DNA from: Malacoraja senta
Taxonomy: Eukaryota
DNA: 64,000 nt
NCBI GenBank assembly: GCA_038087875.1
Contig: CM075992.1
Location: 9,674,001 to 9,738,000, forward strand
Direction: 5' to 3'
In this document: piece by piece, positions 1 through 64,000 of the stretch
Layout of the letters: each line of letters starts with the position of its first letter
How positions within the stretch are numbered: the first letter of the stretch is position 1
Position numbers and translations under genes: made by a program
The notes under the pieces: generated by a model
Told to the model about the DNA's origin: nothing
The model's database searches: none
The model's input: only the letters and a program-made list of their open reading frames with translations

Positions 1-3000
1 TGTCCGTCAGTTTTCACTGAGTAGTTCTTAATTCCCATGAACTTCAACTCTTCTTTCAACATCTCATCAGATTCCTTGCTGGTACTTTCATTGAAGTCAT
101 GATTGTATTGCTTCATCACCGGCCTTTCTAATACATCAGTAGATATTTGATTAACAGCAATGGCAGGACAGTTCTTCTGATTTCCGATTTCGTGGTTCCT
201 TTTCAAGGAGCCACAGATAACACGTCCAAGTCGGGTTTTCGTAGCATACGGTCCATCGCCTTGGCTCCTAACAATCTGTATAGGTTCCAACGCCTTCAAA
301 ACATTCATTCCAATAAGTAGATCAACATTAGAATTTATTTCAGATATCATGACATCCTTCAGGTAAGGCCATTGCTTCAAGTCTTCATGTCTTGGTATAT
401 TTTGACGACCAACAGGCATAGTTCCATGCGTAAACACCAGACATTGGTATGAAATTATCTTCATCCAAACTGGATATCTCCATACTTGTAATACAATGAC
501 TCATGCTCTCTTTATCTTTAGTCATGGTACGTAATCTAAACTTAGTCTCTTCTCCTGTGATATTCAGCCTTCTTGTCAGGTTTTCTGTGCAAAAGGTAGT
601 CGAACTTCCATGATCCAGAAAAGCATATGTTTGCAACACTGTATTCGTCTTATTATTCCTTACCTGTACTGGTAAGATAGAAAAATTACAAGCTTCTACC
701 CTGGCCCCAATATGAGCAGTTACTTGAGACAAGGTGATAGCATTTCTAGTAGTTGGCTTCTCGCCCTGTTCTGTTTGCTCCGGTTCATCTTCTTCTATTT
801 GCTCTGGTATTTCATCATCCGTTTGTTCCAGTTCTTCTTCTTCCCAGTGCTCTGGTAGCTCTTCTTTAATGTGAAGTGCTTCAGGATGATATTGCTTGCA
901 CTCATAACAAATTATAGGACACTTACAGTCTCTCACCATATGCCCTTTTTTCAAACATCCAAAACAGATTCCCTTCTTTTTCAAGAAATCCATCTTATCT
1001 TCATATTCTTTCATCTTGAATCTTCAACACCATCTTATGGTGCGACCAACTTCATCACATAACAAACAAAATACTATTTGCTTGCTAGTAGACACATTAC
1101 TTTTTATTCCATCTGTCGTTTCCACAGGTATGGTTGTGATAGCCAAATTACTTCTCTCAGATATTTCTTCAGTTTTGGAAAAGGTAGAACCTTTGTTAGT
1201 TGCAATCGGTTTGTAATCTTCAATAGTCCAGTGTGGTTCTAACATGTTTTCTACTTCCCTGTCCCAAAATTTCTCCAGGTCTGGTAGTCTGGCTCCTTGC
1301 TTCTTTTCATCTCTAATTTTGCCTGTTTCTCCACTTTTCTCTCAGTCTTGTGGGCAACTTGTTCAAGATGATTCTAGTATTACTCGGAAGATTCATTTCT
1401 TCCATGCGGCCGAGATTTATCATCGAGCTGCAACAATTTCTCATAAATATTGCATAATCGCTCAATGCTTTCCCATCTTCCGGCTTGATTCCTTTCCAAG
1501 CATGGGCCTTCTCCATGTGTGCGTTAGCAATCCTGTGTTCTTCACCAAAATGTTCTTTAAGTAATCTTCTCGCCTTTTTATAGCCATGGCTGCCTGGCTC
1601 TTTCTGACAACTTTCCACAAGCTCTTTCACACTTCCACTTGTTTACTTCACCAGAAATCGTAAGCGCTCTTTTTCATCCATAACTTTCGTTTCTAATATT
1701 TCTTCTAATGCTTTTACGAAAGCTTCATACTGCAAAGGACCTCCACCATACGTAGGAATTTCTGCCGGTGGCAGAATGAGAGGTATTTTGTCGAGCTATA
1801 AATTCAGTTTGATTTTTCACCAATGCCAATAACCCATCCTGGTATCCTTGGCTTGGATCTACTGGTTGATAAACAGGCCTTTGTGATTCAAACTGAATTG
1901 CTCGAGCCTGTGCACCAGGCCTCGAAAAAGCGTGGTCCGCTATTGGTTTGTCTCGAGCATCCACAGACGCTCCAAGTGTAATTTGTTTCAATCTAGCACT
2001 CATTTGCTAAGATGAAGTTTCACCCATCTTCCTTGTTCAAATAGGTTTTCAAAGCCTAGAAATCCAGTGGGCCTAGATTGTGGAATTGATCCAACTGCTG
2101 ATTCACTTCGAGCAATTTTTCTTCTTGGTCTAGAGCTCATCGTCCTTGACGATCTAGAGCTGCATCTTGACCCCTCACTTTCCAGTATCTCCTTCTTTGC
2201 TTTGGCCACCGCCATCATTGTGTCTAATTCCAGTTGTTCCTTACATCGCCTCATCTCATCTTGCTGTCGCGTCATCTCTTCTTGTCTATGTCGTCTCATG
2301 GCTTCTTGATCCCGCTCGATCTCATGTTTTTTCTCCATGGCATCAGCTTCTATTGAGAGTGCAGCTAGCTCAGCTTTAGCTCCCATTTGAGCAGAAGCCC
2401 TCGAAACCGAACTGGCTGAAGAACCAGATTTATGTCTTGATCCTCGTGAAGATATATTGGAGATATTATCTCGTTGTCTAATTTCATCTTCCATTCTGGC
2501 TCCTTGTTGCTTCGCACTTCCAGCTACTAAGTTCGTAACGTGACATAATTTCAGATAACCACTTCTCTGCCTTTTTCATGAAACCATTGAATATCTTCTT
2601 CTTGTCTTCAACCCACTGGGTATGCCTTCTGCGTTCTTCCCAAGACAGCACTGAACACACTAGTACATCTTGTTTCTTGCCAACCTCCTGGTAGAGGTTC
2701 CATAGTTGGCTTATATTAGATTTCACCTTGATCACGTTCTGTTCTGATTCCATTAGTTTCTTCTGTGTATCAATTAATCTGTTAACCTGTAACCGTAATT
2801 CGTTTCTCTCTCTCTCAGTTTCTCTCAAGCAGGCAGTTAGTGTATTATATGTTTCTTCTCGATACACGAGTTCTCTGTAGCTATCAATGGATTTGTTAAC
2901 TTCTTCCCATATTGAGCTCCTTTCTTTGGGTTTCTTTGTTGTCTGGGTCTTTCTTCACCACCACGTGGTTCATCTGGCACAGCTCTTTCTTCCATGATTT

Positions 3001-4098
3001 TAAAGAGGTCTTGGCAGATTGCCAAGTCTTTAAATTGATCAAACAAAAGTCTCTGCGAGTAGCTTTGGCTTTGTTTTGTCAACATTTCCTTCAAAACCAT
3101 AACATATTGATAATGTAGAGAACATCTCAAACCCCAGGTGCATAAAGATGATGCTAATTCAAATGGAGTGCGCTTATCAAGAGATTCAAAACATTCCAAG
3201 ATCGGTCTGCTTTCCCCAGACAAGCTGGAGAAAAACACCTTCTGGTAGCTCTGTTACAGAAGTCTTTTAAAACTAAAGCTTGCTGTACAAATTCAAAGAA
3301 ATACAATCGATTTGTAATCACAAATCCTGCGATATGTCTTCAGATAAGTCTCGATGCTGTCGATAGACCTCAAGGCCTCCTCTGGACGAGATCTATTATC
3401 TTCAGTTCCTCCTGGAACCACTTTCTTCTGGCTAAAACATCTCCGAGAATCTTAGCCAATCTTCTGTCCCAATCTCTGGGACTTGTATCACTCCTGTGAC
3501 GGAGGTCTCCTTCGATCGAATGTTCTGTCCCTCTCTCTGGGACTGGTATTTAACCTCCCTGCTGGAGGTTCCCTTCGACTTAATGTAGCGGCAGAGTTTC
3601 ATATCTTTCAGGAAATTAGCACCCTAGCTGCTAAATGGATGAGCATGGTTGAAGGGGGTGTCTTCGAAACGCATGCGAGCTCACTCACAGAGACCTTCAG
3701 AGCTTCTTCACAGATAAGTCTTTGAAAACACAGTCTTTAGATGAATAAACGCTTTATTGTTGATAGAAAACGGTAAGATACATCCAAATTTCTTCCGACG
3801 TTACTGCAATCTTCATCGAACTCCAGCTTATTACTTTAAACATTATAAAACTCCTCGTGTCTCCGTTACACATGAATGATCTCCTTTAGATCTGGCATGG
3901 ACCCTGCATGGTCGAAGGGTTAACCTTCCCCATCGTCTCTCCAAACTAATCTAAAAACTAAACTTCTGCGCAAGCATCTAAGCTTCAAACACGCCCAAAA
4001 ACACGTCATAAATCCCACCTTCAATATAACGGGCAGTCTAAAATTTAAAGGCGCATGCCATCATCAATGACGTGCAAAACAGGCTAAATGGCCACTAC
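1..4098 (-). mobile_element. BEL/Pao LTR retrotransposon, 5' part (LTR/UTR, gag, protease), frameshifted; continues past window start
   Basis: Minus-strand ORF pieces 2484-2867, 2000-2494, 1313-1630 and 385-1014 give a coiled-coil gag, the BEL-type gag core (GYKKARRLLKEHFG), double zinc knuckles CFGCLKKGHMVRDC/CYECKQYHPEALH and an aspartic protease (TYAFLDHGSSTTFC). 1-385 continues with the BEL-typical DLLIG...GPYATKTRLG. The 5' boundary is placed where a (CTATTGT)n CR1-type tail starts (~4099). Confidence 0.9.
385..1014 (-). pseudogene. BEL/Pao gag zinc-knuckle + aspartic protease fragment
   Basis: CCHC knuckles and LDHGS protease motif; reading frame broken on both sides. Confidence 0.85.
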
Positions 4099-4189
4099 GT
4101 TGTCTATTGTCTATTGTCTATTGTTATCTCTGGAGAAAAGGAATAGGTGACGTTTCGGGTCAAGACCAAACGCCACCTATTCCTTTTCA

Positions 4190-4491
4190 GGTCACGGTGC
4201 CGCAGTGGTAGAGTTGCTGCCTTGCAATGCTTACAGCACCAGTGACCCGGGTTCGATCCTGACTACGGGTGCTGTTTGTACAGGGTTTGTATGTTCTCCC
4301 CGTGACCGCGTGGGTTTTCTTTGGTTTCCTCCAACACTCCAAAGACATACAGGTTTGTAGGTTAATTGGCTTGGTGTATGTGTGAATTGCCCCGAGAGTG
4401 TGTAGGATACTGTTGGTGTGCGGACATCGCTGGTCAGTGCGGGCCAAAGGGCCTGTTTCCGCGCTGTATCTCTGAACTAAACTAAACTAAA
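4190..4491 (+). mobile_element. HE1 (V-SINE superfamily) tRNA-derived SINE
   Basis: tRNA-like head with B box GGTTCGATCC, V-domain GTTCTCCCCGTG...GGTTTCCTCC, CR1-like 3' end GGGCC(G)AAGGGCCTGTTTCC, (AAACT)n tail. Confidence 0.9.
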
Positions 4492-4824
4492 GGTCAGTCT
4501 GAAGAAGGGGCTCGACTCAAAACATCACCTAAACCTTTTCTGCAGAGATGCTGCCTGACCCACTGAGTTACTCCAGCATTTTGTGTCTATCCCCTTTTCC
4601 TTTTGTTTGTTATGTTATCTATGAGTACTGTGTTTAGAAACCTTGAGTGCTGCTGTAAGTAAGAATTTAATTGTTCTGTTTTGCTACATATGACAATTAA
4701 ACGCTCTTGACTCTTAATTCACAATCTTGTACATCTTCATAACATCACCTCTGCCTCCTATGTTCCAAAGTTTGAAGTCCAGGCCTATCTAACCTCTCCC
4801 TATAACTCAAGCCTGCAAGCCTAA

Positions 4825-5142
4825 AACCCCTGTCCCACGGTACGAGTTCATTCCAAGAGCTCTCCCGAGTTTGACCTGATTCGAACTCGGAGATTTACGG
4901 TAATGGCCACTCGTCGGTACTCAGAGATCTCGTGGACATTTTTCATCGTTGAAAAATCTTCACGAGTCTTCCCATGCTTACCTGCCGTTAGCGAGTCTTC
5001 CCGAGTACCTGCCGTTGGTGCTAAGAGACGTTCCCGAGCTCCGACGTACCCGCTACGTACATTCTCCGTGCTTACCACGAGTTTGATTTTTTTTAAACTC
5101 GGGAGAGCTCATGGAATGAACTCGTACCGTGGGACAGGGCTA
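4825..5142. mobile_element. PIF/Harbinger-type MITE
   Basis: ~45-bp terminal inverted repeats (CCCTGTCCCACGGTACGAGTTCATTCC...) with TAA duplicated at 4822-4824 and 5143-5145; no coding capacity. Confidence 0.85.
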
Positions 5143-5535
5143 TAACTGGTGAATGTCAGGCACCCTTTCCAGCTTAGTGACATCATTCCTTCAGACACAA
5201 GGACGGAGCCGGCGGGCTGCAGTTAATGAAGACCCTCCAGGCCACCCTCTGCCACGTATAACGGGAGGCCTAGTCTGCTGTTCCGAAGAAGGACCTGGTG
5301 GGCCGAGCCTGTAGGGGGAAGCTCGGAAGCCGCCGAGCTCGGCCCCGAAGACCAGAGAACTGATGACGTGGGAGTCGCTAACAACGACAGATGCGAGGAG
5401 GGGTCTGGTAGGAGAGGGACCGGGTTAATGCCTTCAGCGCCTCCAAGATCATGTGATAGGAGCAGTATTGAGCCATTTGGCCCAGCTAGTCTGTTACACC
5501 ATTCAATCATGGCTGATCTATCTCTCAGCCCCATT

Positions 5536-6095
5536 CTACCTTAGAAGGCTTCAGAAGTTCGGCATGTCCCCAACAACTCTCACCAACTTCTACAGATGCA
5601 CCGTAGAAAGCATTTTATCGGGATGCATCACAGCTTGGTTTGGGAACGGCTCCACCCAAGACCGCAAGGAATTGCAGCGAATTGTGGACGCAGCCCAGAC
5701 CATCACACAAACCAACCTCCCTTCCATTGACCAGCAGCATAATCAAGGACCAGTCCCTCTTCTCCCCTCTCCCATCTGGCAAGAGGTACAGAAGTGTAAA
5801 AACGCACACCTCCAGATTCAGGGACAGTTTCTTCCCAGCTGTTATCAGGAACTGAATCATCCTACCACAACCAGGGAGCAGTGCTGAACTACTATCTATC
5901 TCTTTGGAGACCCTCGGACTATCCTTGATCGGACTTTGCTAGCTTTTTAGTACCTTGCACTAAAATGTATTCCTTTATCATGTATCTATCCACTGCAAAT
6001 GGATCGATTGTAATCATGTATTGTCTTTCCGTTGACTGGTTAGCATGCAACAAAAGCTTTACACTGTACCTTGTTACACGTGACAATAAACTAAA
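5536..6095 (+). mobile_element. Rex1/Babar LINE 3' fragment
   Basis: LRRLQKFGMSPTTLTNFYRCTVESILSGCITAWFGN and LPSGKRYRS motifs; 3' UTR ending GTGACAATAAACTAAAC. Confidence 0.85.
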
Positions 6096-6554
6096 CAGAA
6101 CTGCCCTCTCCCCATAACCCCAGATGTCCGTCAGCTGCAGGAGGTGCCACCGGGGCACAGAGGTGGTCTGGCAGGCGAGGAGAGGGACGGGGTTGGGGGG
6201 CCGAGCATGACGGAGCAGGCCCTTTAGCTGGGCGACTGAATTACGCACAGTGCTCCTGGTGAGGTCTTGTACAGTTACACCATGATTTCAGAACTTTTGA
6301 ACTCAGTATTCTTCTCGATGAACCCAAGCGTGCTACACTCCCTTCTCCAGCCCACGGTTCACCTGACTCCCCAACTGACCACAACACATCCATGTCCACA
6401 CACTTCTAGGCCACAGTTATGGACTGAAAGCTTCAACATTAATTGCAGCTCGAAATTGAAATGTTGTGCAAGAGAAAGGTGTGAAAGGGCATCAGGGCAG
6501 TTGGAGTTGGGACGAGAGAGAGGGTGAGACAGTGATAGTGCTTCTGCTACAACA

Positions 6555-6990
6555 GGGCGGCACGGTGGCGCAGCGGTAGAGTTGCTGCCTCACAGCGGCA
6601 CAGACCAGGGTTTGATCCTGACTACGGGTGCTGTCTGTACCTTCTCCCCGTGACCGTGTGCTTTTTCTCCGGGTGCTCCGGTTCCCTCCCACACTCCAAA
6701 GACGTACAGGTTTGTATGTTAATTGGCTTCGGTAAAGATTTTAATTCGTCCGTGGTGTGTATTCCTGAACTAGTCGCTGGCTAGGCATATGTTTGCTATT
6801 GATAATGTTTAAATAAAGTGTCGCCCAATGTAGGGCTCGAACCCTCGTCCCTGAGATTAAGAGTCTCATGCTCTACCGACTGAGCTGGCCAGGCATGTAG
6901 GATATTGCTAGTGTACGGGGATCGCTGGTCAGCACAGACTCAGTGGGCTGAAGGGCCTGTTTCTGCGTTGTGTCTCTAAAAACTAAAACT
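6555..6990 (+). mobile_element. HE1 SINE interrupted by a tRNA-Lys-containing insertion
   Basis: SINE consensus breaks at ~6761 and resumes at ~6896 (TGTAGGATA). Confidence 0.85.
6822..6894 (-). tRNA. tRNA-Lys(CTT), probably a pseudogene
   Basis: 73 nt, GCCTGGCCAGCTCAGTCGGTAGAGCATGAGACTCTTAATCTCAGGGACGAGGGTTCGAGCCCTACATTGGGCG. About 6 differences from the canonical vertebrate Lys-CTT (recalled), including invariant U8->C and T-stem mismatches. Confidence 0.85.
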
Positions 6991-7169
6991 TATGGACCCT
7001 AACCTGAAAAATCACCTATCCATGTTCTCCAGAGATGCTGCCTGACCTACTGATACAGTATACTCCTGTACTTTGTGTCTCATTTAATATTGTGTACAGG
7101 TCTTACATATTGTTTAGACTGAGTGCCCTGTGATCACCTTATTGACATGCCTTGCTTCTTTTGAAACAT

Positions 7170-7468
7170 GTTAAGAGATACAGTGCGGAAGCAGGTCCTT
7201 CAGCCCACCAAGTCTGCCGGCCATGCGATCGCCAGAGACTAACAATATCCTACACATACTAGGGACAATTTATAATTTTACCAAGCCAATTAACCTACAA
7301 ACCTGTATATCTTTGGAGTGTGGGAGGAAGCCAAGCTCCTGGAGAAAACCCACGCAGGACACGGGGAGAACGTACAAACTCCATACAGACAGCAGCCGTA
7401 GTCAGGATCAAATCCCAGGTCTCTGGCGCTGTGAGGCAGCAGCTCTACCCGCTGCGCCACCGTGCCAC
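7170..7468 (-). mobile_element. HE1 SINE
   Basis: Reverse-complement match to the SINE head, V-domain and tail. Confidence 0.85.
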
Positions 7469-7807
7469 CCACCGTTCAGCCGCCACATGTTAACCAGCTT
7501 TGTTGCAGTGTCAACCGCCTGCCGCACTCTGACCACGCTGGCTCTTTCTCCCATCGCTAAGCTGCCTCAGACAGAGCAGGCAACATGTGTGGGAAGGTGG
7601 TGAATCTGTGGAATTCTTTGCCACAGAAGGCTGTGGAGGCCCTCTGGATCAATGGATATTTTTAAGGCTGAGATAGATTTATTCTTGCTTAGTACAGGTG
7701 TCGAGAGTTATGGGGAGAAGGCAGGAGAATGGCAGAGTAGACTTGATGGGCCGAATGGCCTAATTCTGCTCCTTTCACCTATGGCCTTATGAACTAAGAA
7801 ACTGCAG

Positions 7808-8370
7808 TTTCGCTGAACACCTCCGCTCAGTCCGCCTAAACCTACCTGATCTGCCGGTTGCCAAACACTTTAGCTCCCCCTCCCATTCCCACACTGACCT
7901 TTCTGTCATGCGCCTCCTCCACTGTCAGAGTGAGGCCCACCGCCTCATATTTCGCTTGGGCAGCTTACACCCCATTGGTATGAACATTGACTTCTCTAAC
8001 TTCCAAGTGACCCTTGCATCCCCTCTCTCTCTCTCCGTTCCACCCCTATCCTAGTTCTCTGACAAGTTCTACTGTTCTGATTAAACATTACTGATTATAT
8101 GCCTCATTGTCACCTTATACATCTCGACCCGAAACGTCACCTTTCCTTCGCTCCATAGATGCTGCCTCACCCGCTGAGTTGCTCCAGCATTTTTGTCTGC
8201 ACTCTACATTTCTTAATCATCATCTGCTTTGATCGTCCTTTGCACTCCTTATCCTTCCATATCTCTATGTCGCCCTCTCCCCTGACTCTCAGTTTGAAGA
8301 AGGGTCTTGACCCAAAACGTCACCCATTCCTTCTCTCCAGAGATGCTGCCTGAGTTACTCCAGCATCTTA
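7808..8370 (+). mobile_element. Penelope-like element 3' end (GIY-YIG C-terminus + terminal repeats)
   Basis: FAEHLRSVRLNLPDLPVAKHF...HSHTDLSV, followed by two degenerate hammerhead-bearing repeats (~8122, ~8292). Confidence 0.8.
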
Positions 8371-9099
8371 TGTGTATCTTCAGACAGAGCAGGGACAGAT
8401 CCCAGAATCCTGTCAAATGCTGGCAGTTGTTTCCGGTTCACGGTGGTCTGAAGATGTGTTGCGGGAGAATTTAATTCAGTTAGTGAGAAGGAGCGTGATT
8501 ATTGTCCAGCATGTGGCATCCATGTGTGTGGGAGGATGTTTTGGTGGGGGGTGGTATCGGTGGGTGGAGCGATCAGAACATCGGCTGCGAACATCAAAAA
8601 TCACCTCCTCACTTGAGTCTCTGAGAAACCTCGGTCACACTGAGTCCCGGCTCCACTAACCACCTGCAAATTAGAAGCAGAACAAGCATTCAGTTTAGAG
8701 ATGCAGCGCGGAAACAGGCCCTTCGGCCCACCGAGTCCGCTCTGACCAGCGATCCCCGTACAGACAGCAACCGTAGTCAGCATTGAACCCAGGTCTCTGG
8801 CGCTGTGAAGCAGCAACTCTACCCTGTGCCACTGTGCTGCCCCGACCTATTGTATCTAACAAATGATATCCTTCAATACATTGATCAAAGGTTAATGACA
8901 ACAGATAGGAACGGTTTAGACAGATATGGACCAAACAAAGGTGAGAGGGACTGGTTTAGATAGGATATCTTGGTTGTCATGGACAAGGTGGGCCGAATGG
9001 CCTGTTTCTGTGCTGTGGGACTCTCTGACTCTAGAATAGGCTGTTTCTGGTCATGTGTACTGTTGGTGCGCACACGTATGTCCACGTGTGCAGTAACAT

Positions 9100-15975: not shown

Positions 15976-16004
15976 ATACCCGTACTAATCAAGAATCTCT
16001 CTCT

Positions 16005-16248
16005 CTCTCCCTCCCCCGCCCAAGTTGCACCAACTTCTCTTTTCACCCAACAGACAGCTAACAATGACCTGTTTCCTTTATCATCGTAACTTTTTGCACA
16101 TCTGTCATTCAATGATCTTTATCTCCCCGCATCACTGTCTGTATCTCTCCTTTCCCTTTCCCGTGACTTTCAGTCTGAAGAAGGGTCTCGACCCGAAAGG
16201 TCACCCATTCCTTCTCTCCAGAGATGCTGCCTGTCCATCTGAGTTACT
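16005..16248 (+). mobile_element. Penelope terminal repeat with near-intact hammerhead motif (16175)
   Basis: CTGAAGAAGGGTCTCGACCCGAAAGGTC followed by CAGAGATGCTGCCTG. Confidence 0.7.
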
Positions 16249-21139: not shown

Positions 21140-21447
21140 TTTTGTAACCCTTGCATCCCCTCTCTCTCCGTCCCTCCCCCACCCAAGTCTCAAAGTCGTC
21201 TTGTTGCGTCTCATTAGATGTAACTCCTAGCCCACAATGTGTAGGAAGGAACTGCAGATGCTGGTTTAAACCGAGGATAGACACATAAAGCTGGAGTAAC
21301 TCAGCGGGACAGGCAGCATCTCTGGGGAGAAGGAATGGGTGACATTTTGGGTCGAGATCTTTCTTCAAACTCGAAACATCACCCATTCCTTCTCTCCAGA
21401 GATGCTGCCTGACCTGCTAAATTACTCCAGCACTTTGTGTCTATCTT
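21140..21447. mobile_element. Penelope terminal repeats in head-to-head fold-back arrangement
   Basis: GCTGGAGTAACTCAGC...GCAGCATCTCTGG.GAGAAGGAATGGGTGA and its reverse complement around ~21360. Confidence 0.75.
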
Positions 21448-22074
21448 CCATTAAAGACAAGACTTCAAGACAGCTGGGATACTCTGCCAGACTGAATCCA
21501 CTGTGTCTTTTGCTTGCAAAAGCATGTTGATTTTACTGCAGAATAAATGTTGGTGAATTTATGGGGCCGTGGAGGCGAATATATTGCACGATCCAGGCTA
21601 TGATTCATAATCTGTTATAAAAAACATTTAAATGTTGGGATGCTGATCCTGATGTTGTTTTTCTGGAGCAGGAACTTGACTCTGTTTTATGAATTGCACA
21701 TGTGGCCGACTGATCCCCTGACACCGAGCTTAAAAAATGCATGTGTTATTATTGTTTTCACTGGGACTTGGTTACGGATTCCTCAAAGTTGGTTCCAGTG
21801 AAAGTCAGGAAGGAAAGTCGATGTGGAACTCACTGTTACAACTTGCGAATACTGCGCCAACAACTCCCCCTCTTCAACAAGCTACCACCAACAGCGAGGG
21901 CATGGGTTCGATCCTGACTACGGGTGCTGTCTGTACAGAGTTTGCACGTTCTCCTCGTGACCGCATGGGTTTTTTCCGGGTGCTCCAGTTTTCTCCCACA
22001 CTCCAAAGACGTGCAGGTTTGAAGGTTAATTGGCTTTGGTACAATGGTAAATTGTCCCTTGTGCGTATGTAGTT

Positions 22075-40200: not shown

Positions 40201-42108
40201 TCTATTTTAGGTTCTGTTTTATAATTCCTCCTGGATGAGTGGGATTACTATGATTATCACTTTCGTCATTAAAAAGCATCAGCATGTTTACATTTATGTC
40301 ATGCTTTATTTAATTTCACTCATCCCTGGTCAATTGATGACGCATGGACTCGTGTCCACAGCATGAAATCACAGAGCTTAGAATCTTCACGTAGTCACTC
40401 ACGTGACTCCGACGTAAAATAGTAAGATTAAACGAGAACTTACCAGTTTGAAGTTTGATCTTTATTTTATGAGGAGTTACGATGAGGGATACGTGCCCTC
40501 CGCTCCCAACCCTCTCTCATAAAGGTAGCTGGTAGTTCTAGTTTCTCGAATCTTACTATATTCAGTTCAACAACTGTTATCTGTGATTTCACACCGCTGC
40601 TTTGAAGATTGACGCGCATGCGGGCTGGCTGGCTCTTCACGTAATCCCTCATCGTAACTCCTCATAAATAAAAGATCAAACCTCAAACTGGTAAGTTCTC
40701 GTTTAATCTTACTATCATATTGAATGGCGGTGCAGGCTCGAAGGGCCAAATGGCCTACTCCTGCACCTATTTTCTATGTTTCGATGTTTCTATGATGCAG
40801 CGGTAGAGTTGCTGCCTCACAGCGCCAGAGGCCCAGGTTCAATCTGGCTACGGGTGCTGTCTGTACGGAGTTTGCACGTTCTCCCTGTGACTGCGTGGGT
40901 TCTCTCCGGTTTCCACCCACACTACAAAGACGCGCAGGTTTGTAGATTATTTGGCTTCTGTAAATTGTATATTGTCCCTTGTGTGCAGGGCAATCGCTGG
41001 TCGGCGCGGACTCGGTGGGACGGATGGACTGTTTCCCTGCTGTATCTCTACAGACTAAAGTCTAAGCTCCCACCCCTCTGATCTCCTAGTCCGCCTGGTC
41101 CCCTTTATCCCCTGTTACCCCTCCCCCCTGTCCTCTTCCAATCATCTCCCTCCCCCCGGCTTTACATTTCACTCAACTTCTCTCACTCCCAACCACTCTT
41201 TTGCAATCCATTTTCATCCCTACCCTTTGTCATTGACTCCATCCATCTGCCAATGACCCCCTCACCTGTATCACCTATCACTAGCCAATCTTTGCCCCAC
41301 CCCCAACTTTCTCTTCAGTTTCCTCCCCCTCCCACCCCACACCATCACCCGACCTGAACATCACCTGCACTTCCCGCCACAGAGGCTGCCGGACCTGTTG
41401 GGTTCTTCCAGCAATTAGCTCAAGATTCCAGCATCTGCGGTCTCATTTGTGATTCAATTGATGAGCTACATGGCATCCTCTTCACCCTTTTACATTACAT
41501 TTTACACTGCAATTCTCTATTTTAGACAATACAGTATTAATGCCACAGAGAGCACAAAGTACGTGGCAATCTTTAAAGACATGTTGCCAACTTTAGATAT
41601 AGGCATTATGCTTTAGAGATACGATGCTGAAACAGGCATGACGGCCCACCGGTCAGCACCGACCTGCGATCCCCCGCACACGAACGCTATCGTACACACA
41701 CTAGGGACAATTTATACTATTCCCAAAGCCAATTAACCTTCAAACCTGTACATCTTTGGAGTGTGGGAGGAAACCCACATGTCACAGGAGAACAGTACAA
41801 ACTCTGTACATACAGACACCCATAGTCGGGATGGAACCCGGGTCTCTGCGTTGTAATGCAGGAACTCCACCGCTGAGCCACCGTGCCGCCCTGCCAACAA
41901 CTATTAACAACTGCTCTGCCCTATGTCAAAATGTACATAGACGTTGCAGGTCGAGACCCTTCTTCAGACTGAGTTACTCCTGCATTTGTTTCTATCTTTG
42001 TCGTAAACCAGCACCTGCAGTTCCTTCCAACACATTTTGTCTGTTCAATTGCATGATCTCCTCAAGCTATGCCTACTTTAACGAAGTTCTCCTCCTCTCT
42101 CCCACAGT

Positions 42109-42136
42109 CTGAAGAAGGGCCTCGACCCGAAACGTC
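42109..42136 (+). ncRNA. Minimal hammerhead ribozyme motif
   Basis: gt-CTGAAGA-A-GGGCCTCGACCC-GAAAC-GTC-ac. Confidence 0.65.
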
Positions 42137-42327
42137 ACCCATTCCTTCTCTCCAGAGATGCTGCCTGTCCCGCTGAGTTACTCCAGCATTTTGTGTCGAT
42201 CTTAATCACAGAAACTTGACTAACAACAAAATGAGGTCTTATACAGGATGGAGCTCAGAAAGACTTAATTTGGTGACAAACAGAATTAAATGATTATCCA
42301 CGAGTCTAACTTCATTAACAGTCTGAA

Positions 42328-48030: not shown

Positions 48031-49287
48031 CCCATTAGGACTGAGATGAGGAAAAACTTTTTCACCCAGAGAGTTGTGAATCTGTGGAATTCTCTGCCAC
48101 AGAAGGCAGTGGAGGCTGATTCACTGGATATTTTCAAGAGAGGGTTAGATTTAGCTCTTCGGGCTAATGGAATCAAGGGATATGGGGAGAAAGCAGGAAC
48201 GGGGTACTGATTTTGGATTATCAGCCATGATCATATTGAATGGTGGTGCCGGCTCGAAGGGCCAAATGGCCTACTCCTGCACCTACTTTCTATGTTTCTA
48301 TGTTTCTAATTCTGGAGAGTTCTGTAACAGTTCCTGCACTCTCTTTCACTTTAACTCCACCCTAACACATCCAATTTGTTGATCCAACCCCCTCACTATT
48401 TCGTTTAAAGCTCTATCTACAGCCCTGGTTATACGGTTTGCCAGGAGTCTGGGCCCAGCCGGGTTCAAGTGGAGTCCATCACATCGGAAAAGAGCCCTCC
48501 TTCCCTAATCCTGGTGCCAAAGTCCCACAAATTCAAACCCATTTCTTGCACACCTGTCTTTGATCCAAGCATTCAACTCTCTAATCTGCTCGAGATAGGT
48601 GACGTTTCAGGTCTGAAGAAGGGTCACAACTCGAAACATCACCCATTTCTTCTCTCCAGAGATGCTGCCTGAGTTACTCCAGCATTTTGTGTCTAGCATT
48701 GGATTTATGTCTAAAATCTCATTTTATTTCATTCGTGGAAAAAATTCACTTGGACAACCTAGAAAAGGTGGGAAGACACAAAGTATTGGAGGAACTCAGC
48801 TGGTCTGGCAGCATCTGTGGAGGGAATGGATGGACAATGTTTCAGGTCGGGACCCTTCTTCAATCTGTTCTGATAGGGGGAATGGGGGACTCAGGGATGG
48901 GAGATAGGGTACGGAGGAAGGGAAAGGAGCTGACTGCGGGTTGAGAGATGGTGGGAGAAATGTGTGGGGGCCACAGAAAGAGAGAGGAGTTGGGCAGAAT
49001 GAACTAATATTGGAGAATTCAATGTTGTTACCTTTGGGTTGCAATCATCCCATGCAGAATAGGAGGTGCTGCATGAATATACCCTTGGAGTGGGTTATTT
49101 TGGAGAACACAGTGGTGCAGCGGGTAGAGCTGCTGCCTCATAGCTGTGGAGAGCCTGCTGTGTGGAACTTGCATATTCTCCCTGTGAAAGCGAATTGTGG
49201 ATGCAGTCCAGACCATCACACAAACCTATCCATCACATATCAGATTCTGTAGACAAAATGATGTGTAGATGCTGGAGGTTTGAGCCG

Positions 49288-49458
49288 AAAACATGGCGTG
49301 CTGGAGTAACTCAGCGGGTCAAGCAGCATCTCTGCAGGACATGGACAGGCAACATTTTGGTTCGGGTCTGAAGAACGGTGCCAACCCGGAACATTGCCTA
49401 ACCTTGTCCTCCAGAGATGCTGTCTGACCTGCTGAGTTACTCCAGCACGCCACATTTT
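49288..49458. mobile_element. Fold-back (MITE-like) Penelope terminal-repeat derivative
   Basis: ~45-bp inverted arms TGGCGTGCTGGAGTAACTCAGC.. around a degenerate hammerhead core. Confidence 0.75.
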
Positions 49459-57439: not shown

Positions 57440-57770
57440 ACGGTAACAATGAAGCATACAAAGATAAAAATATAATCAGGGGGGCCGTCGAACTGGTGGG
57501 AGAACGAGCAAGGGGGAGGGATGGAGAGGGGGTTACTTGAAGTTAGAGAAGTCAATGTTCATACCACTGGGGTGTAAGCTGCCCAAGCCGAATATGAGGT
57601 GCTGTTCCTCCAATTTGCGCTGGGCCTCACTCTGACAATGGAGGAGGCCCAGGACAGAGCGGTCAGTGTGGGAATGGGAGGGGGAGTTAAAGTGTTGAGC
57701 AACTGGGAGATCAGGCAGGTCCAGGCGGAGGTGTTCAGTGAAACGTTTGCCGAGCCTGTGCTTGGTCTCG
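57440..57770 (-). mobile_element. Penelope GIY-YIG endonuclease C-terminal fragment
   Basis: ETKHRLGKRFTEHL..DLPVAQHFNSPSH...RKLEEQHLIFGLGSLHPSGMNIDF. Confidence 0.88.
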
Positions 57771-59305: not shown

Positions 59306-59514
59306 GGCCCTCTCTTGAAAACATCCAGTGAATTGGCCTCCATTGCCTTCTGTGGCAGAGATCTCCACAGATACACACTCACTGGGTGAAATACGTCTTT
59401 CTTCATCTCAGTCCTAAATGGATTAGCAAAAGGTCTCATCTAAAGGTCTCACCACATTCACCAAAGTAACCAAGGGAAAATACAAATAATTGCCTTCACA
59501 ATGTACATGCAATC

Positions 59515-60200
59515 GTAGGTAGACACAAAAAGCTGGAGTAACTCAGCGGGCAGGCATCATCTCTGGAGTGTGATGTTTTGGGTCGAGACCCTTCTTCAGA
59601 TTGGTTAGAGATAAGGGAAATTAGAGAAATAAACAGTGATGTGGAGAGATAAATGAATGAAAGATATGCAAAAAAGTAACGTTGATAAAGGAATCAGGCC
59701 ATTGTTTGCTGTGTGCTAGGTGATCTTGACCTAATCTCCCGGTTTCAAAACACTTTAACTCCCTCTCCCATTCCCACGCAGACCTTTCAGTCCTGGGCCT
59801 CCTCCACTGTCAGAGTGCGGCCAAAAGCAAATTGGAGGCACAGCATCTCATATTTTGCTTGGGCAGCTTACAACACAGCGGTATGATATTGATTTCTCTA
59901 ACTTCAAGTGACTCTTGCACTCCATCTCTCTCCACCCCTCCCCCACCCAAGTCATACCAGCCTCAAAGTCGTCTTGCTGAGTCTCATTGTCTGTAACTCA
60001 TTTTCACCTAACCTTTGGCCGACAATGGCCTATTTCGTTTGTCATTGTTACTCTTTTGCATATCTTTCATTCATTTGTTCTATATCTCTCTCTATCACCG
60101 TCCATATCGCTAATTTCCCTTTCCCCTGACTCTCAGTCCGAAGAAGGGTCTCAACCCAAAATGCCACCTATTCATATTACTCCAGCTTTTTGTGTCTATC
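59515..60200 (+). mobile_element. Penelope 3' end preceded by an inverted terminal repeat
   Basis: Inverted repeat at 59517-59720, GIY-YIG remnant at 59740-59906, direct terminal repeat to 60200. Confidence 0.8.
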
Positions 60201-60674
60201 CATGTGCCTCTTAGCCTGGTGGATCTTTGCCTGAAATGGCCACTTGAGTCAGTTCAGGGCAGTCAATGATCACCAATTGCCAAAGGGTCTCATCTGTGAT
60301 CCTCACAGTCACCAAAGTAACCAAGGGAAATTAAAATAATCTCCCGCTCAAAGTACATGTTATAGTGCTTTAAGATCTTGCGCTGGACCAACACATGGCT
60401 CAAGTTCCCCAGTGTAATACGGCAAGACATTCAATGTGTGTATGCACATGTGAGTGTCTGTGTGCATCTACATATATGTATGTGTATGCATCTGTGTGTA
60501 TGTCTGCAAATATGTGTGCAGGGTTCTACACATATGTGTGTGTCTGCACTCTGTGTATGTTCACATGTGAGTGTATGATGTATTTGCACATGTGTGAGTG
60601 CATATGTGTGGGTTGATTTGTATGAGTCTACATGTTTCCATGTGTGTGCCCAAGCGTGCATGTGCGTATGTAGC

Positions 60675-62415
60675 AGGGGCTATGGACTATAACTAATTAC
60701 CGGAGCAGCCCCCCCTCAACCGGGAGTGCCGGCGCCTCCTCAGATAATGACTTGAACTCTTTCTATGCACGATTTGAGGCAGGCAACATCACCTCTAGCT
60801 CACCGGCTAACAACAACACTGCCAGCGTGCTGGCTAGCGAGGCTGGAGGGAGGCACACCGCTGGGGATGTGCACACATTCTCGGTGTCCGAGCACGACGT
60901 GAGGAGGGCTCTGACGCATGTGAACACGAGGAAAGCTGAAGGCCCAGATGGTATATCTAGGCCAGTACTAAAGTCCTGTGCTACTCAGCTAGCTCCAGTG
61001 TTCACCACAATATTCAACCTCTCCCTGACCAAGTCCATGGTCCCTGCCTGCTTCAAGAGATCCACCATTGTACCAGGGCCTAAGAATGCCTCTCCAGCCT
61101 GCTTGAATGACTACCGACCAGTGCTCCTCACCTAAGTGGTCATGAAATGCTTCGAGAGGCTGATCAAGAACCTCATCTGCGCCTTCCTCCCTCACACCAT
61201 GGACCCGCTGCAGTTCGCATACCGTCAAAACAGATCCACGGATGATGCGGTCTCCCAGGTTCTGCACACCGCTCTCTCTCACCTTGACAGCCAGAAGGGG
61301 GGCTGTGTGAGGATGCTCTTCATAGACTTCAGTTTGGCCTTCAATACCATAGTCCCCACCAGACTTGCTGAGAAGCTGCTGGAATTGGGGCTGAACACTC
61401 CCCTGTGTGCCTGGGTCCTGGACTTTCTCACCGCCAGGCCCCAGGTGGTCAAGATGGGGAGACATACCTCCAACCCCCTCACCCTGAACACAGGATCCCC
61501 CCAGGGTTGAGTCCTCAGCCCCCTACTGTACTCCCTGTACACACATGACTGTGTGGCCAGGTTCAGCTCCAAATCCATCATCAAGTTTGCTGATGACACT
61601 GTGGTGGTGGGGCTGATCTCAGATAACAATGAGAAGGCCTACCAGGAGGAGGTGGCTGATCTGGCACTCTAGTGTCAGAATAACAGCCTCCTCTTGAATG
61701 CCACAAAAACTAAGGATTGTGGACTTTTAGAAGGGCACAACAACCGAGGACGTACACGCCACTGGAGATTAATGGGGCTACTGTGGATAGGGTGAGCAGC
61801 TTTAAATACCTGGGAGTCCACATCACCGACCATCACCGAGGATCTGACATGGACATCACACGCTGCCGCACTGGTGAGTAAGGCAAGGCAGCGCCTTTAC
61901 CACCTCAGGCAGCTGAGGAAATCCAGAGTCTCTCTGAGGACCCTTCTACTTTGGTGCTGTAGAAAGTATCCTGTCCGGAAACATCTCGATCTGGTTTGGA
62001 AACTGTTCTGCCCAGGACAAGAAGGCTCTGCAGAGAGTAGTGCGTTCAGCCAAACACACTATGGGAACTACACTCACCCCCCTGCAGGATCTATACACCA
62101 GGGGGTGCAGATCCAGAGCCAGCAAGATAAGGAAGGACCCCTACCACCCCAGCAACGGACTGTTCCAGCTGCTACGGTCAGGCAATCGCCTCCGCTGTCA
62201 CGCTGTGAAAACAGAGAGGGTGAGACAGAGTTTCTTCCCACAGGCCGTCAGGACTGTAAACTCTAATCTCACCAGGGACTAATTTACTGTTGTGTCTTTT
62301 TTTTAAATGTAAATACTCATTCTGTTCTGTTCTGTTGTTTCGCACAATCCCGCAGGCATTGCCACTTTCATTTTTCTGTATATCTTGTATGTGTATGTGA
62401 CAAATACAGTTGACT
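60675..62415 (+). mobile_element. Rex1/Babar LINE RT region, with stops and frameshifts
   Basis: [60 protein letters not shown]. Confidence 0.93.
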
Positions 62416-62743
62416 AGATGTGACTTTTGTGTGTCCATGTGGGTGCGCATGTGTGTGTGTATTTAAATGTGGGTATGTTGCAGTACACAGACAATACTTG
62501 AATTTGAGCAAAAACCAGAAGTGCTGGAGGAACTGAGCGGGCCAGGCAGCATCTATGGTGGGATTAGACAGCTGGGACAATACTTGCATTCACATGGGCT
62601 GAAAGGTCACGTTCCGAGCCATTTTTGACGTGTTTGCTGAAGCAGACGAGGGGAAGATTAGCTACAATCCACGGCTGCAAGGCCAAGGCCAAGGCCCTGC
62701 ATAGCCGGCCTCTGTCCCAGCACACAGGCCTGCCAACAAAAGG

Positions 62744-63010
62744 AGTGCTGTCTGTACGGAGTTTGTACATTCTCCCTGTGACCACGTGGGTTTTCTCCGA
62801 GATCTTTGGTTTTCTCCCCACTCCAAAGACGTACCGGTTTGAAGGTTAATTGCTTGGTGTAAAGTGTAAAATTGTCCCTATTGTGTGTAGGATAGTGTTA
62901 ATGTGCGGGGCTCGCTGTTCGGCGCGGACTCGGTGGGCCGAAGGGCCTGTTTCTGCGCTGAATCTCTAAACTAAGGCTAAGCTAAACTAAACTAAACTAA
63001 ACTAAACTAA
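62744..63010 (+). mobile_element. HE1 SINE, 5'-truncated
   Basis: V-domain and tail. Confidence 0.85.
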
Positions 63011-63252
63011 TTTAAACGGTGTGTGACCAAACCCTGGATACTGGCGATTACTCCCCAGATCATGTCAGCCACTGAGCAATGAAGGCTGGCATTGGTGCTG
63101 AAATACAAGTACCCCCTCTCTGGCCATCACGGCCTATGGTCAGTTGAGCAAAATATCTCAGAACTGGCAAAAAACGTCATGATCTTCCAGCGGCAGTAAT
63201 CCTGTCCTCTGAGATGCGTCTGGATTACCAGAAGAACAAGGCAGTGAACAAG

Positions 63253-63280
63253 CTGAAGAAGGGTCTCGACCCGAAACGTC
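63253..63280 (+). ncRNA. Minimal hammerhead ribozyme motif, copy 1 of tandem pair
   Basis: CTGAAGA-A-GGGTC-TC-GACCC-GAAAC-GTC. Confidence 0.65.
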
Positions 63281-63715
63281 ACCCATTCCTTCTCTCCAGA
63301 GATGCTGCCTGTCCCGCTGAGTTTACTCCAGCGTTTTGTGTCTATCTTCGGTTTAAACCAGCATCTGCAGTTCCTTCCTACACAATACCATTAAAGCACC
63401 CCCACAAAAACCTTAAAAACGTGCTGGAAGGAGTTGAACCAACATCAGAGGAAACAGCATCTCATATTTCATTTGGGCAGCTTACAGCCCAGTGGTATGA
63501 ATATTGATTTCTCTCACTTCATGTAGCCCCGGCATTCCCTCAATCTCTATCCCCCCCCCACCCAAGTCACACCAGCTTCTCATTTTCACACTACAAACGG
63601 CTTACAACGGCCTGTTTCCTTTATCTTCGTTACTCTTTTGCATATCTTTCATTCTTTGTTCTTTATCTCTCCTCATCACCGTCTATATCTCTCGTTTCCC
63701 TTATCCCTAACCATT

Positions 63716-63743
63716 CTGAAGAAGGGTCTCGACCCGAAACGTC
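63716..63743 (+). ncRNA. Minimal hammerhead ribozyme motif, copy 2 of tandem pair
   Basis: Identical 28-nt core 463 bp downstream, after a GIY-YIG remnant (~63447-63520). Confidence 0.65.
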
Positions 63744-63786
63744 ACCCATTCCTTTTCTCCAATGATGCTGCCTGTCCCGTTGAGTT

Positions 63787-64000
63787 AGACATAGAAAATA
63801 GGTGCAGGAGGAGGCCATTCGGCCCTTCGAGCCAGCACCGCCATTCATTGTGATCATGGCTGATCGTCCCCTATCAATAACCCGTGCCTGCCATCTCCCC
63901 ATATCCCTTGATTCCACTAGCCCCTAGAGCTCTCTTAAATCCATCCAGTGACTTGGCCTCCACTGCCCTCTGTGGCAGGGAATTCCATAAATTCACAACT
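63787..64000 (-). mobile_element. CR1 3' end
   Basis: Reverse complement of the CR1 tail and RVVNLWNSLPQRAV. Confidence 0.85.

Follow-up and report, generated by a model that had tools for sequence, protein, structure and literature searches.

Two decayed Penelope-like minimal hammerheads side by side in the genome of Malacoraja senta

Results

Anatomy of the locus

The window, that is, the whole stretch of 64,000 nt that we analysed (Malacoraja senta, assembly GCA_038087875.1, contig CM075992.1, positions 9,674,001 to 9,738,000 of the forward strand), contains near its end two fragments of a Penelope-like element (PLE), each with a minimal type-I hammerhead core. Features lie on the + strand unless stated otherwise. 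The first fragment is preceded by a single-copy host flank (63010-63252) that has no other match within the window. Copy 1 (63253-63385) is a short PLE-derived unit of 133 nt which runs from the hammerhead core to the end of what we call the tail; it was delimited by comparison within the window and by the loose ends of reads, which accumulate before 63253 and behind 63384 in the mapping of reads and contigs. Its core (63253-63280) consists of CUGAAGA, a bulged A and GAAA, with a predicted cut after 63280. The tail (63350-63385) is an optional stretch of about 36 nt between the two 3' end points of the family, as defined by the 3' ends of the window fragments. Copy 1 is close to the family majority, from which it differs by one substitution and one extra base.

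Behind copy 1 lies a spacer of 62 nt (63386-63447) that, judged by similarity searches and read depth, is neither PLE-derived nor amplified. No other part of the window resembles it significantly (lowest E value 0.038, across 22 nt). In three other copies the GIY-YIG end is preceded by PLE sequence, to which the spacer bears no resemblance either (P 0.19-0.93). According to the original prediction, the two cores enclose only a Penelope GIY-YIG remnant and a 3' repeat; this is not the case for 63386-63447, which is non-PLE sequence with a depth at or below single-copy.

Copy 2 is truncated at its 5' side. It begins with a C-terminal remnant of the PLE GIY-YIG endonuclease (63448-63526, identified by DNA identity and BLASTP) that ends at the stop codon, and continues with the PLE 3' untranslated region or pseudo-LTR (63527-63715; window matches at 16002-16246, 55783-55630, 59705-59539 and 59840-60184). 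Core 2 (63716-63743, predicted cut after 63743) begins 190 nt past the stop of the remnant, in the terminal repeat. The remainder of copy 2 (63744-63786) stops short of the first family end point, as the comparison of copies shows. Across the 71 nt that copies 1 and 2 share there are four differences. From 63787 to 64000, on the - strand, the 3' end of another repeated LINE, which we take to be CR1-like, interrupts or abuts copy 2 and continues beyond the window; ten further copies of it are found in the window.

The surroundings are rich in repeats. A SINE-like repeat with a (CTAAA)n tail occupies 62740-63010 (+), immediately upstream of the unique flank, and further upstream (60660-62280, +) there is a decayed LINE reverse-transcriptase remnant, presumably L2/Rex-like when judged by eye. 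A tRNA-like match of 40 bits at 6822-6894 (-) is probably a SINE head. A stop-free frame of 119 codons (63148-63507, +) runs through flank, copy 1 and spacer; it is probably due to chance and has no significant match in Pfam or PDB. By eye, flank and spacer could be taken for the start of a retroelement reverse transcriptase, in which case copy 1 would have split an older sequence. Searches of the natural frames in Pfam and PDB gave nothing significant, and this reading was dropped.

Read support for the locus

We mapped four of the 21 listed runs (X1, X2, X15 and X21) onto 63010-63760 at 85% likeness; X21 consists of raw DNA reads (1,938 Mb). At 63123 and 63200, the X1 and X2 contigs have a single extra C compared with the window, which could be alleles or assembly slips.

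An assembly error in this repeat-rich DNA might have joined two pieces that are not neighbours in the animal. Such an error would fit with the spacer, which no listed record spans and which in X1 has a depth of 3.9 as opposed to 31 in the flank, and with the single bases of X1 and X2 that the window lacks in the flank. However, an X1 contig of depth 31 covers 63010-63276 with no substitutions and three gaps, so the junction between flank and copy 1, the one side that is confirmed, is seen in independent data. Furthermore, the spacer is an ordinary, unique-looking sequence and not a repeat that would invite misjoins, and with 88% of X1 read and X2 and X21 at low depth, a hole in the coverage proves nothing. 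We therefore regard a misassembly as very unlikely.

Assignment of the endonuclease remnant

The remnant at 63448-63526 shares 82-88% DNA identity with three longer remnants in the window, and in BLASTP 18 of 33 residues are identical to the protein P0002 (E 1e-10), which in turn has a Pfam GIY-YIG match below threshold (E 0.0013). For the longer remnant at 57536-57769, 12 of 59 candidate proteins matched; the best three come from skates (up to 74% identity), and two of the homologues have sub-threshold Pfam GIY-YIG matches. Since Pfam finds nothing in the window's own short GIY-YIG pieces, the assignment rests on the homologues.

Several features of endonuclease-bearing PLEs are present: the C-terminal GIY-YIG domain, the 5' truncation, inverted terminal pieces and an optional tail of 30-40 bp, as described in the available sections of PMC8557442 and PMC11167929. 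Several homologues of the family's endonuclease, and only the homologues, show a CX4CX2C linker. In the accessible text of PMC8557442 such a linker is tied to Neptune and Nematis and not to Poseidon; the linker feature of the Neptune clade (CX2-5CxxC), likewise seen here only in homologues, is common to Nematis too. In this respect the homologues differ from the Poseidon element PAc of Anolis carolinensis (Frangieh et al. 2024, PMC11167929), with which the family shares the hammerhead in the terminal repeat.

Other clusters of the family are found in the window. A second same-strand cluster (7800-8381, +) consists of a GIY-YIG remnant and two cores, partial at 8122 and full at 8294, and its junctions differ from those of the pair at 63253-63743. 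Inverted, head-to-head pieces lie at 21238-21451, 41940-42203, 48611-48870 and 59511-60200. At 49366, an inverted junction places GGGT before a core, which would lengthen helix I; that core is decayed.

The hammerhead cores

As originally predicted, the 28-mers at 63253-63280 and 63716-63743 are identical and in direct orientation, with predicted cuts 463 nt apart. Helix II (63261-63272 in core 1, 63724-63735 in core 2) is closed by a G-C pair, the base between positions 9 and 10.1 is bulged (63260 and 63723), and the palindrome ACGU (63276-63279 and 63739-63742) forms a helix III without a loop. Both cores pass a descriptor of the minimal hammerhead (CUGANGA, GAAA, NUH and a helix II with G10.1-C11.1). 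This descriptor has five intact matches in the window, compared with a mean of 0.03 over 100 Markov simulations. On the other hand, the Rfam covariance models report no hammerhead at gathering scores in the window, nor at E values up to 10 in 62800-64000. 

Helix I is the weak part of both copies, and the reservation made about it beforehand was correct: it is missing altogether (0 bp) in copy 1 and amounts to 1 bp in copy 2, compared with 2 bp (GT/AC) in the family, so that the helix I of several base pairs known from minimal hammerheads is absent from both. The GT that precedes the core in the family is seen in the X21 reads, of which 2471 of 3088 have T at 63252 and 6272 of 7005 have G at 63714. 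Core 2 is limited to 1 bp because 63714 differs from the family G.

The closest known system is the minimal hammerhead of PLE terminal repeats (Cervera and de la Pena 2014, PMC4209133). In the sections of that paper that were available, the motif is described as having a type-I core like ours, a helix III without a loop, palindromic positions 15.2-16.2, an unpaired base between 9 and 10.1, the pair G10.1-C11.1 and a location in the terminal repeat, downstream of the GIY-YIG ORF. There, too, most copies are single and truncated, nearby pairs are often on opposite strands, and a dimer model is proposed. The hammerhead core, its PLE terminal-repeat context, the helix III without a loop and the pairing of two copies through the palindrome were thus rightly recognised in the prediction, and are already published. 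There are two differences: helix I has 4-5 bp in the S. mansoni families of that study, and the density in our case (one core region per about 7 kb of reads, see below) greatly exceeds the range of 2,000-9,000 motifs per genome given there, although the latter are descriptor counts. We found no skates or sharks in the searched parts of the paper and its supplements.

Our search of the literature on PLE hammerheads in sharks, skates and cartilaginous fish found no paper on this PLE family. Lunse et al. reportedly treated dimeric PLE hammerheads in 2017, and their set may or may not include this family.

Related loci

A pattern scan of metagenome contigs gave at least 124 loci with at least 129 matches, which reduce to 94 distinct variants after collapsing identical sequences of helix II with its 6-nt flanks. 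At positions that the pattern leaves free, pairs 3 and 4 of helix II are Watson-Crick in 86 and 88% of the 94 listed variants, and pairs 1 to 3 of helix I in 85, 85 and 77%. The permutation control gives 32-43%, and none of 2000 permutations was as high, with relatedness among the loci left uncorrected. Three or four types of pairs occur at each tested helix position in these variants, and helix I reaches at least 3 bp in 62 of the 94. A PLE GIY-YIG match was found at 19 of the 124 listed loci; in 17 cases it lies upstream on the same strand, and in 15 within 90-240 nt. Judged by this comparison of sequences, we consider the motif to be a real, conserved hammerhead class.

In blastn, none of the 124 listed loci matches the window element at E 1e-8, so the related loci represent separate families. 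The viral contig collection contains no match to the core pattern. Among the 22 cores of the window itself, 85% of the cells are paired, with no excess over shuffles (124-209 of 500 were as high), which is expected for neutrally decaying copies of a few masters.

The 463-nt interval as a retrozyme

The original prediction proposed that the two ribozymes excise a 463-nt, retrozyme-like RNA mobilised by the Penelope reverse transcriptase. Animal non-LTR retrozymes (PMC7229834; Li et al. 2026, preprint), as far as they are covered in the sections available, likewise have two direct type-I cores a few hundred bases apart, which flank non-coding sequence related to a PLE terminal repeat. Their repeats are described as 150-450 nt long, tandem and self-paired (PMC7229834).

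If the interval belonged to an amplified retrozyme family of this kind, its size close to the animal range and the type-I cores at both ends would be as expected. However, a mobilised unit would multiply the spacer, and at 63400-63425 the spacer has a depth of 3.9 in X1, 0.9 in X2, 0 in the 1,938 Mb of X21 and 0 in X15, while the flank has 31, 4.3, about 1-2 and 0, respectively. The spacer is therefore at or below single-copy in all four runs, and nothing points to an amplification of the 463-nt unit. Within the interval, no more than 71 nt are repeated. TRF reports two microsatellites in 62500-64000 and no array of full units, and no second copy of either internal junction was found in the window. 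The linear fold of the monomer (-76.2 kcal/mol) does not differ from that of shuffled sequences (-76.0 kcal/mol, z -0.04), so the RNA is not highly self-paired. In one contig set, guessed to be RNA and carrying another organism code, depth is absent from the unique parts.

In summary, the middle part is not amplified, there is no tandem repeat, and the RNA is not self-paired; by these three tested features the 463-nt interval is not a retrozyme, and we give next to no credence to its membership in an amplified family. Unlike the known non-LTR retrozymes, for which we rely on the accessible text of the two studies, it also lacks a canonical helix I. The check by circular RNA reads that came with the prediction is confounded, because a back-junction reads like ordinary read-through of any intact copy of the family.

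Could the pair cut?

A weaker version of the proposal is that the interval is a retrozyme at its birth, not amplified so far. In this case a transcript of the + strand, perhaps together with the PLE protein, would form a double hammerhead joined through the ACGU palindromes and would free a 463-nt RNA that could be circularised. All core nucleotides are intact in both copies, and low in vitro cleavage of minimal hammerheads as dimers or trimers, though not as monomers, is reported in the available part of PMC4209133. The preprint bioRxiv 2026.07.22.740005, in the portion available, proposes that animal retrozymes arise from PLE terminal repeats and gives a mean length of 363 bp for the one cartilaginous fish that was sampled.

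The pairing argues against such a start. In the register of the double hammerhead, helix I has 1 bp for the cut at 63280 and 0 bp for the cut at 63743, the latter because host DNA precedes copy 1. For a transcript with two copies, the predicted pairing probability is 0.02 and 0.08 for the two helices II and 0.00 for the palindromes of the two copies. In 40-nt windows a competing hairpin is preferred, in which the GGGU of helix II pairs with the ACCC after the cut site; it is preferred in all three window copies with GGGU, whereas the hammerhead fold is taken by the two related loci that were folded for comparison. The monomer is not unusually folded either (see above), and in the same preprint eight of nine predicted Xenopus retrozyme dimers were not cleaved in vitro. 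Fold predictions on naked RNA are weak evidence, as they ignore tertiary contacts and the help of proteins, and PLE hammerheads can be protein-assisted: in the sections of PMC11167929 at hand, the anole PLE hammerhead cut only in the presence of its protein. Cleavage of both copies is probably weak or absent, and a retrozyme at birth appears to us very improbable.

Two ways of restoring helix I were considered and rejected. The flank of copy 1 could form a duplex with the sequence after core 2 (-8.5 kcal/mol), which leaves five or six bases unpaired beside the core and does not restore the helix. A splice-gated helix I, noted for D. virilis in the available part of PMC4209133, seemed worth considering in view of the pyrimidine tract and the AG that immediately precede the core in the family; a common first exon is not supported, as solo copies share only 1-5 upstream bases.

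Density, chance and relative age of the two copies

The family is very abundant. The X21 depth just after the core is 279,086, or one core region per 6.9 kb of reads, and that of the tail is at least 125,882, a lower bound since the extra base of copy 1 breaks alignments. Lower depths are seen at the GIY-YIG end (18,205) and in the 3'UTR of copy 2 (8,657). In the window there are 22 cores within six mismatches. If 22 cores are placed at random, 1.4 same-strand pairs 100-500 nt apart are expected per window, and the probability of at least one is 0.76; a tandem pair as such is not unusual at the density of the window. With the five intact cores alone, the chance of a same-strand pair drops to 0.053, which mildly favours the original prediction: the two cores, two of these five, are the only pair in the window in which both match the 28-mer exactly. 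Of the seven core pairs closer than 1.1 kb in the window, five are on opposite strands, and two cores occur in seven of the 124 listed metagenome loci, inverted in six of them.

We consider it probable that the locus consists of two fragments of one very abundant endonuclease-bearing PLE family, which arrived by insertions at different times and lie 62 nt from each other. Of the two, copy 2 would be the older one, a 5'-truncated 3' end with GIY-YIG remnant, 3'UTR and hammerhead that was later cut off by the LINE, and copy 1 the younger, a short core-to-tail unit of the kind most often found. The 463 nt between the cuts would then be a by-product of neighbouring insertions and not a mobile unit. 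Directly observed are the arrangement of the pieces, the uniqueness of the spacer, the density of the family, its two end points and the degeneration of helix I. We count against it that no target-site duplication longer than 4 nt was seen at the locus and that no empty allele was found among 15 of 3438 joints listed.

Copy 1 departs from the majority of reads at 1-2 of 133 positions. Copy 2 does so at 18 of 339, namely at 14 sites where about 80% or more of the reads differ and at the four differences from copy 1; at all four of these, copy 1 has the family letter. The difference in divergence (Fisher P 0.02-0.08, from the best 40 of 242 variant rows) makes a difference in age borderline, and it could also reflect subfamily structure.

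The main alternative is that a single complex PLE insertion made both pieces, by a template jump or by capture of the 62 nt, leaving a dead, single-copy structure that is likewise not a retrozyme. According to the available sections of PMC3846280, PMC8557442 and PMC6765202, partial tandems of PLEs occur, and PLEs insert close to existing copies and pick up unrelated DNA between their terminal repeats. Moreover, both cores are perfectly intact, and direct joints from tail to core (63384 to 63715) occur in all four runs (78, 62 and 4 contigs, and 40 reads). On the other hand, the unequal divergence of the copies favours separate insertions over one complex event, while leaving some room for the latter; a canonical partial tandem has no foreign spacer; and for copy 1 a flanking duplication was looked for and not found, the far end of copy 2 being under or beyond the LINE. 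We therefore think of a single complex event as possible but rather unlikely.

The joints from 63384 to 63715 represent head-to-tail units of 132 nt, from core to tail, elsewhere in those genomes. As true tandems of whole units, these are better candidates for retrozymes than 63253-63743. In X21, 2107 reads show a further joint (63323 to 63273), that is, a tandem of about 66 nt from the part after helix II, without CUGANGA; this joint was not seen in X1, X2 and X15.

End points of the family and its probable mode of movement

The 5' ends of 41 window fragments fall into three groups: 15 lie at -9 to +3 of the core, eight fragments carry 3'UTR, and 18 start further in. None of the 41 starts around the cut site (+26 to +31), so there is no enrichment there, yet the depletion is not significant. 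Of 39 3' ends, 19 lie at +85 to +101 and seven at +120 to +133, with none in between, and 13 fragments are shorter. The reads agree with this: loose ends immediately ahead of 63253 are found in 101,938 reads of X21, and in the same run the depth stays level at the cut site (276,100 before and 279,086 after it). The ends of the family, with a start at the 5' edge of the core, two tail sites and no pile-up at the cut site, fit an uncleaved RNA template.

The short copies (for example at 4494, 11103, 25846, 26904, 48611, 55187 and 58219) mostly have their start within the 0-5 nt ahead of the core, at a TCAGT that resembles an initiator, none of them at the predicted cut site, and behave like a SINE of 95 or 132 nt derived from the PLE. 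The initiator consensus is YYANWYY, and the family sequence just before the core fits it. One copy (41940-41973, -) ends exactly at the GUC triplet (+28), like a copied 5' product of cleavage; it is one of 39, and its core is mutated.

The simplest model that we infer from these ends is that copying begins at the tail and runs off at an RNA start immediately ahead of the core. The short units would be reverse transcripts begun inside the RNA at the tail sites, and reverse transcription, on uncleaved RNA, would run off at the RNA 5' end. There are precedents for both ends. For the anole PLE, the accessible sections of PMC11167929 describe internal initiation of reverse transcription at the tail in vitro, with unprocessed RNA as template, and the tail marks two internal start sites; the D. 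virilis Penelope has an internal promoter with an initiator and a downstream element (PMC2377424, in the part available). As in PAc, the family has two genomic 3' end points, one tail length apart and downstream of the hammerhead, and there is no sign of cleaved RNA as a template. The start sites and the protein-assisted cleavage were measured for PAc, whereas we infer them for this family.

Discussion

What lies at 63253-63743 are two decayed PLE minimal hammerheads side by side; the motif has already been described, and there is no new mobile RNA circle. The locus itself matters little, as fragments of this known kind of element are very numerous.

If a retrozyme at birth were nevertheless true, the two intact cores, once transcribed and bound by the Penelope protein, would pair through no more than their 4-nt ACGU palindromes, cut in spite of a helix I of 0-1 bp and set free a 463-nt circle with captured host DNA. 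A chance neighbourhood of PLE fragments would then seed a new non-LTR retrozyme, and the minimum for a working hammerhead would be lowered. A real double cut would support the proposed PLE origin of animal retrozymes.

The family is modestly useful as test material, as its copies are sharply delimited and occur about once per 7 kb. In the available text of PMC8557442, the function of the hammerheads in PLEs is described as still unclear. On a genome-wide scale, the family could show which RNA, cleaved or uncleaved, gives rise to PLE copies, and at what point this RNA begins.
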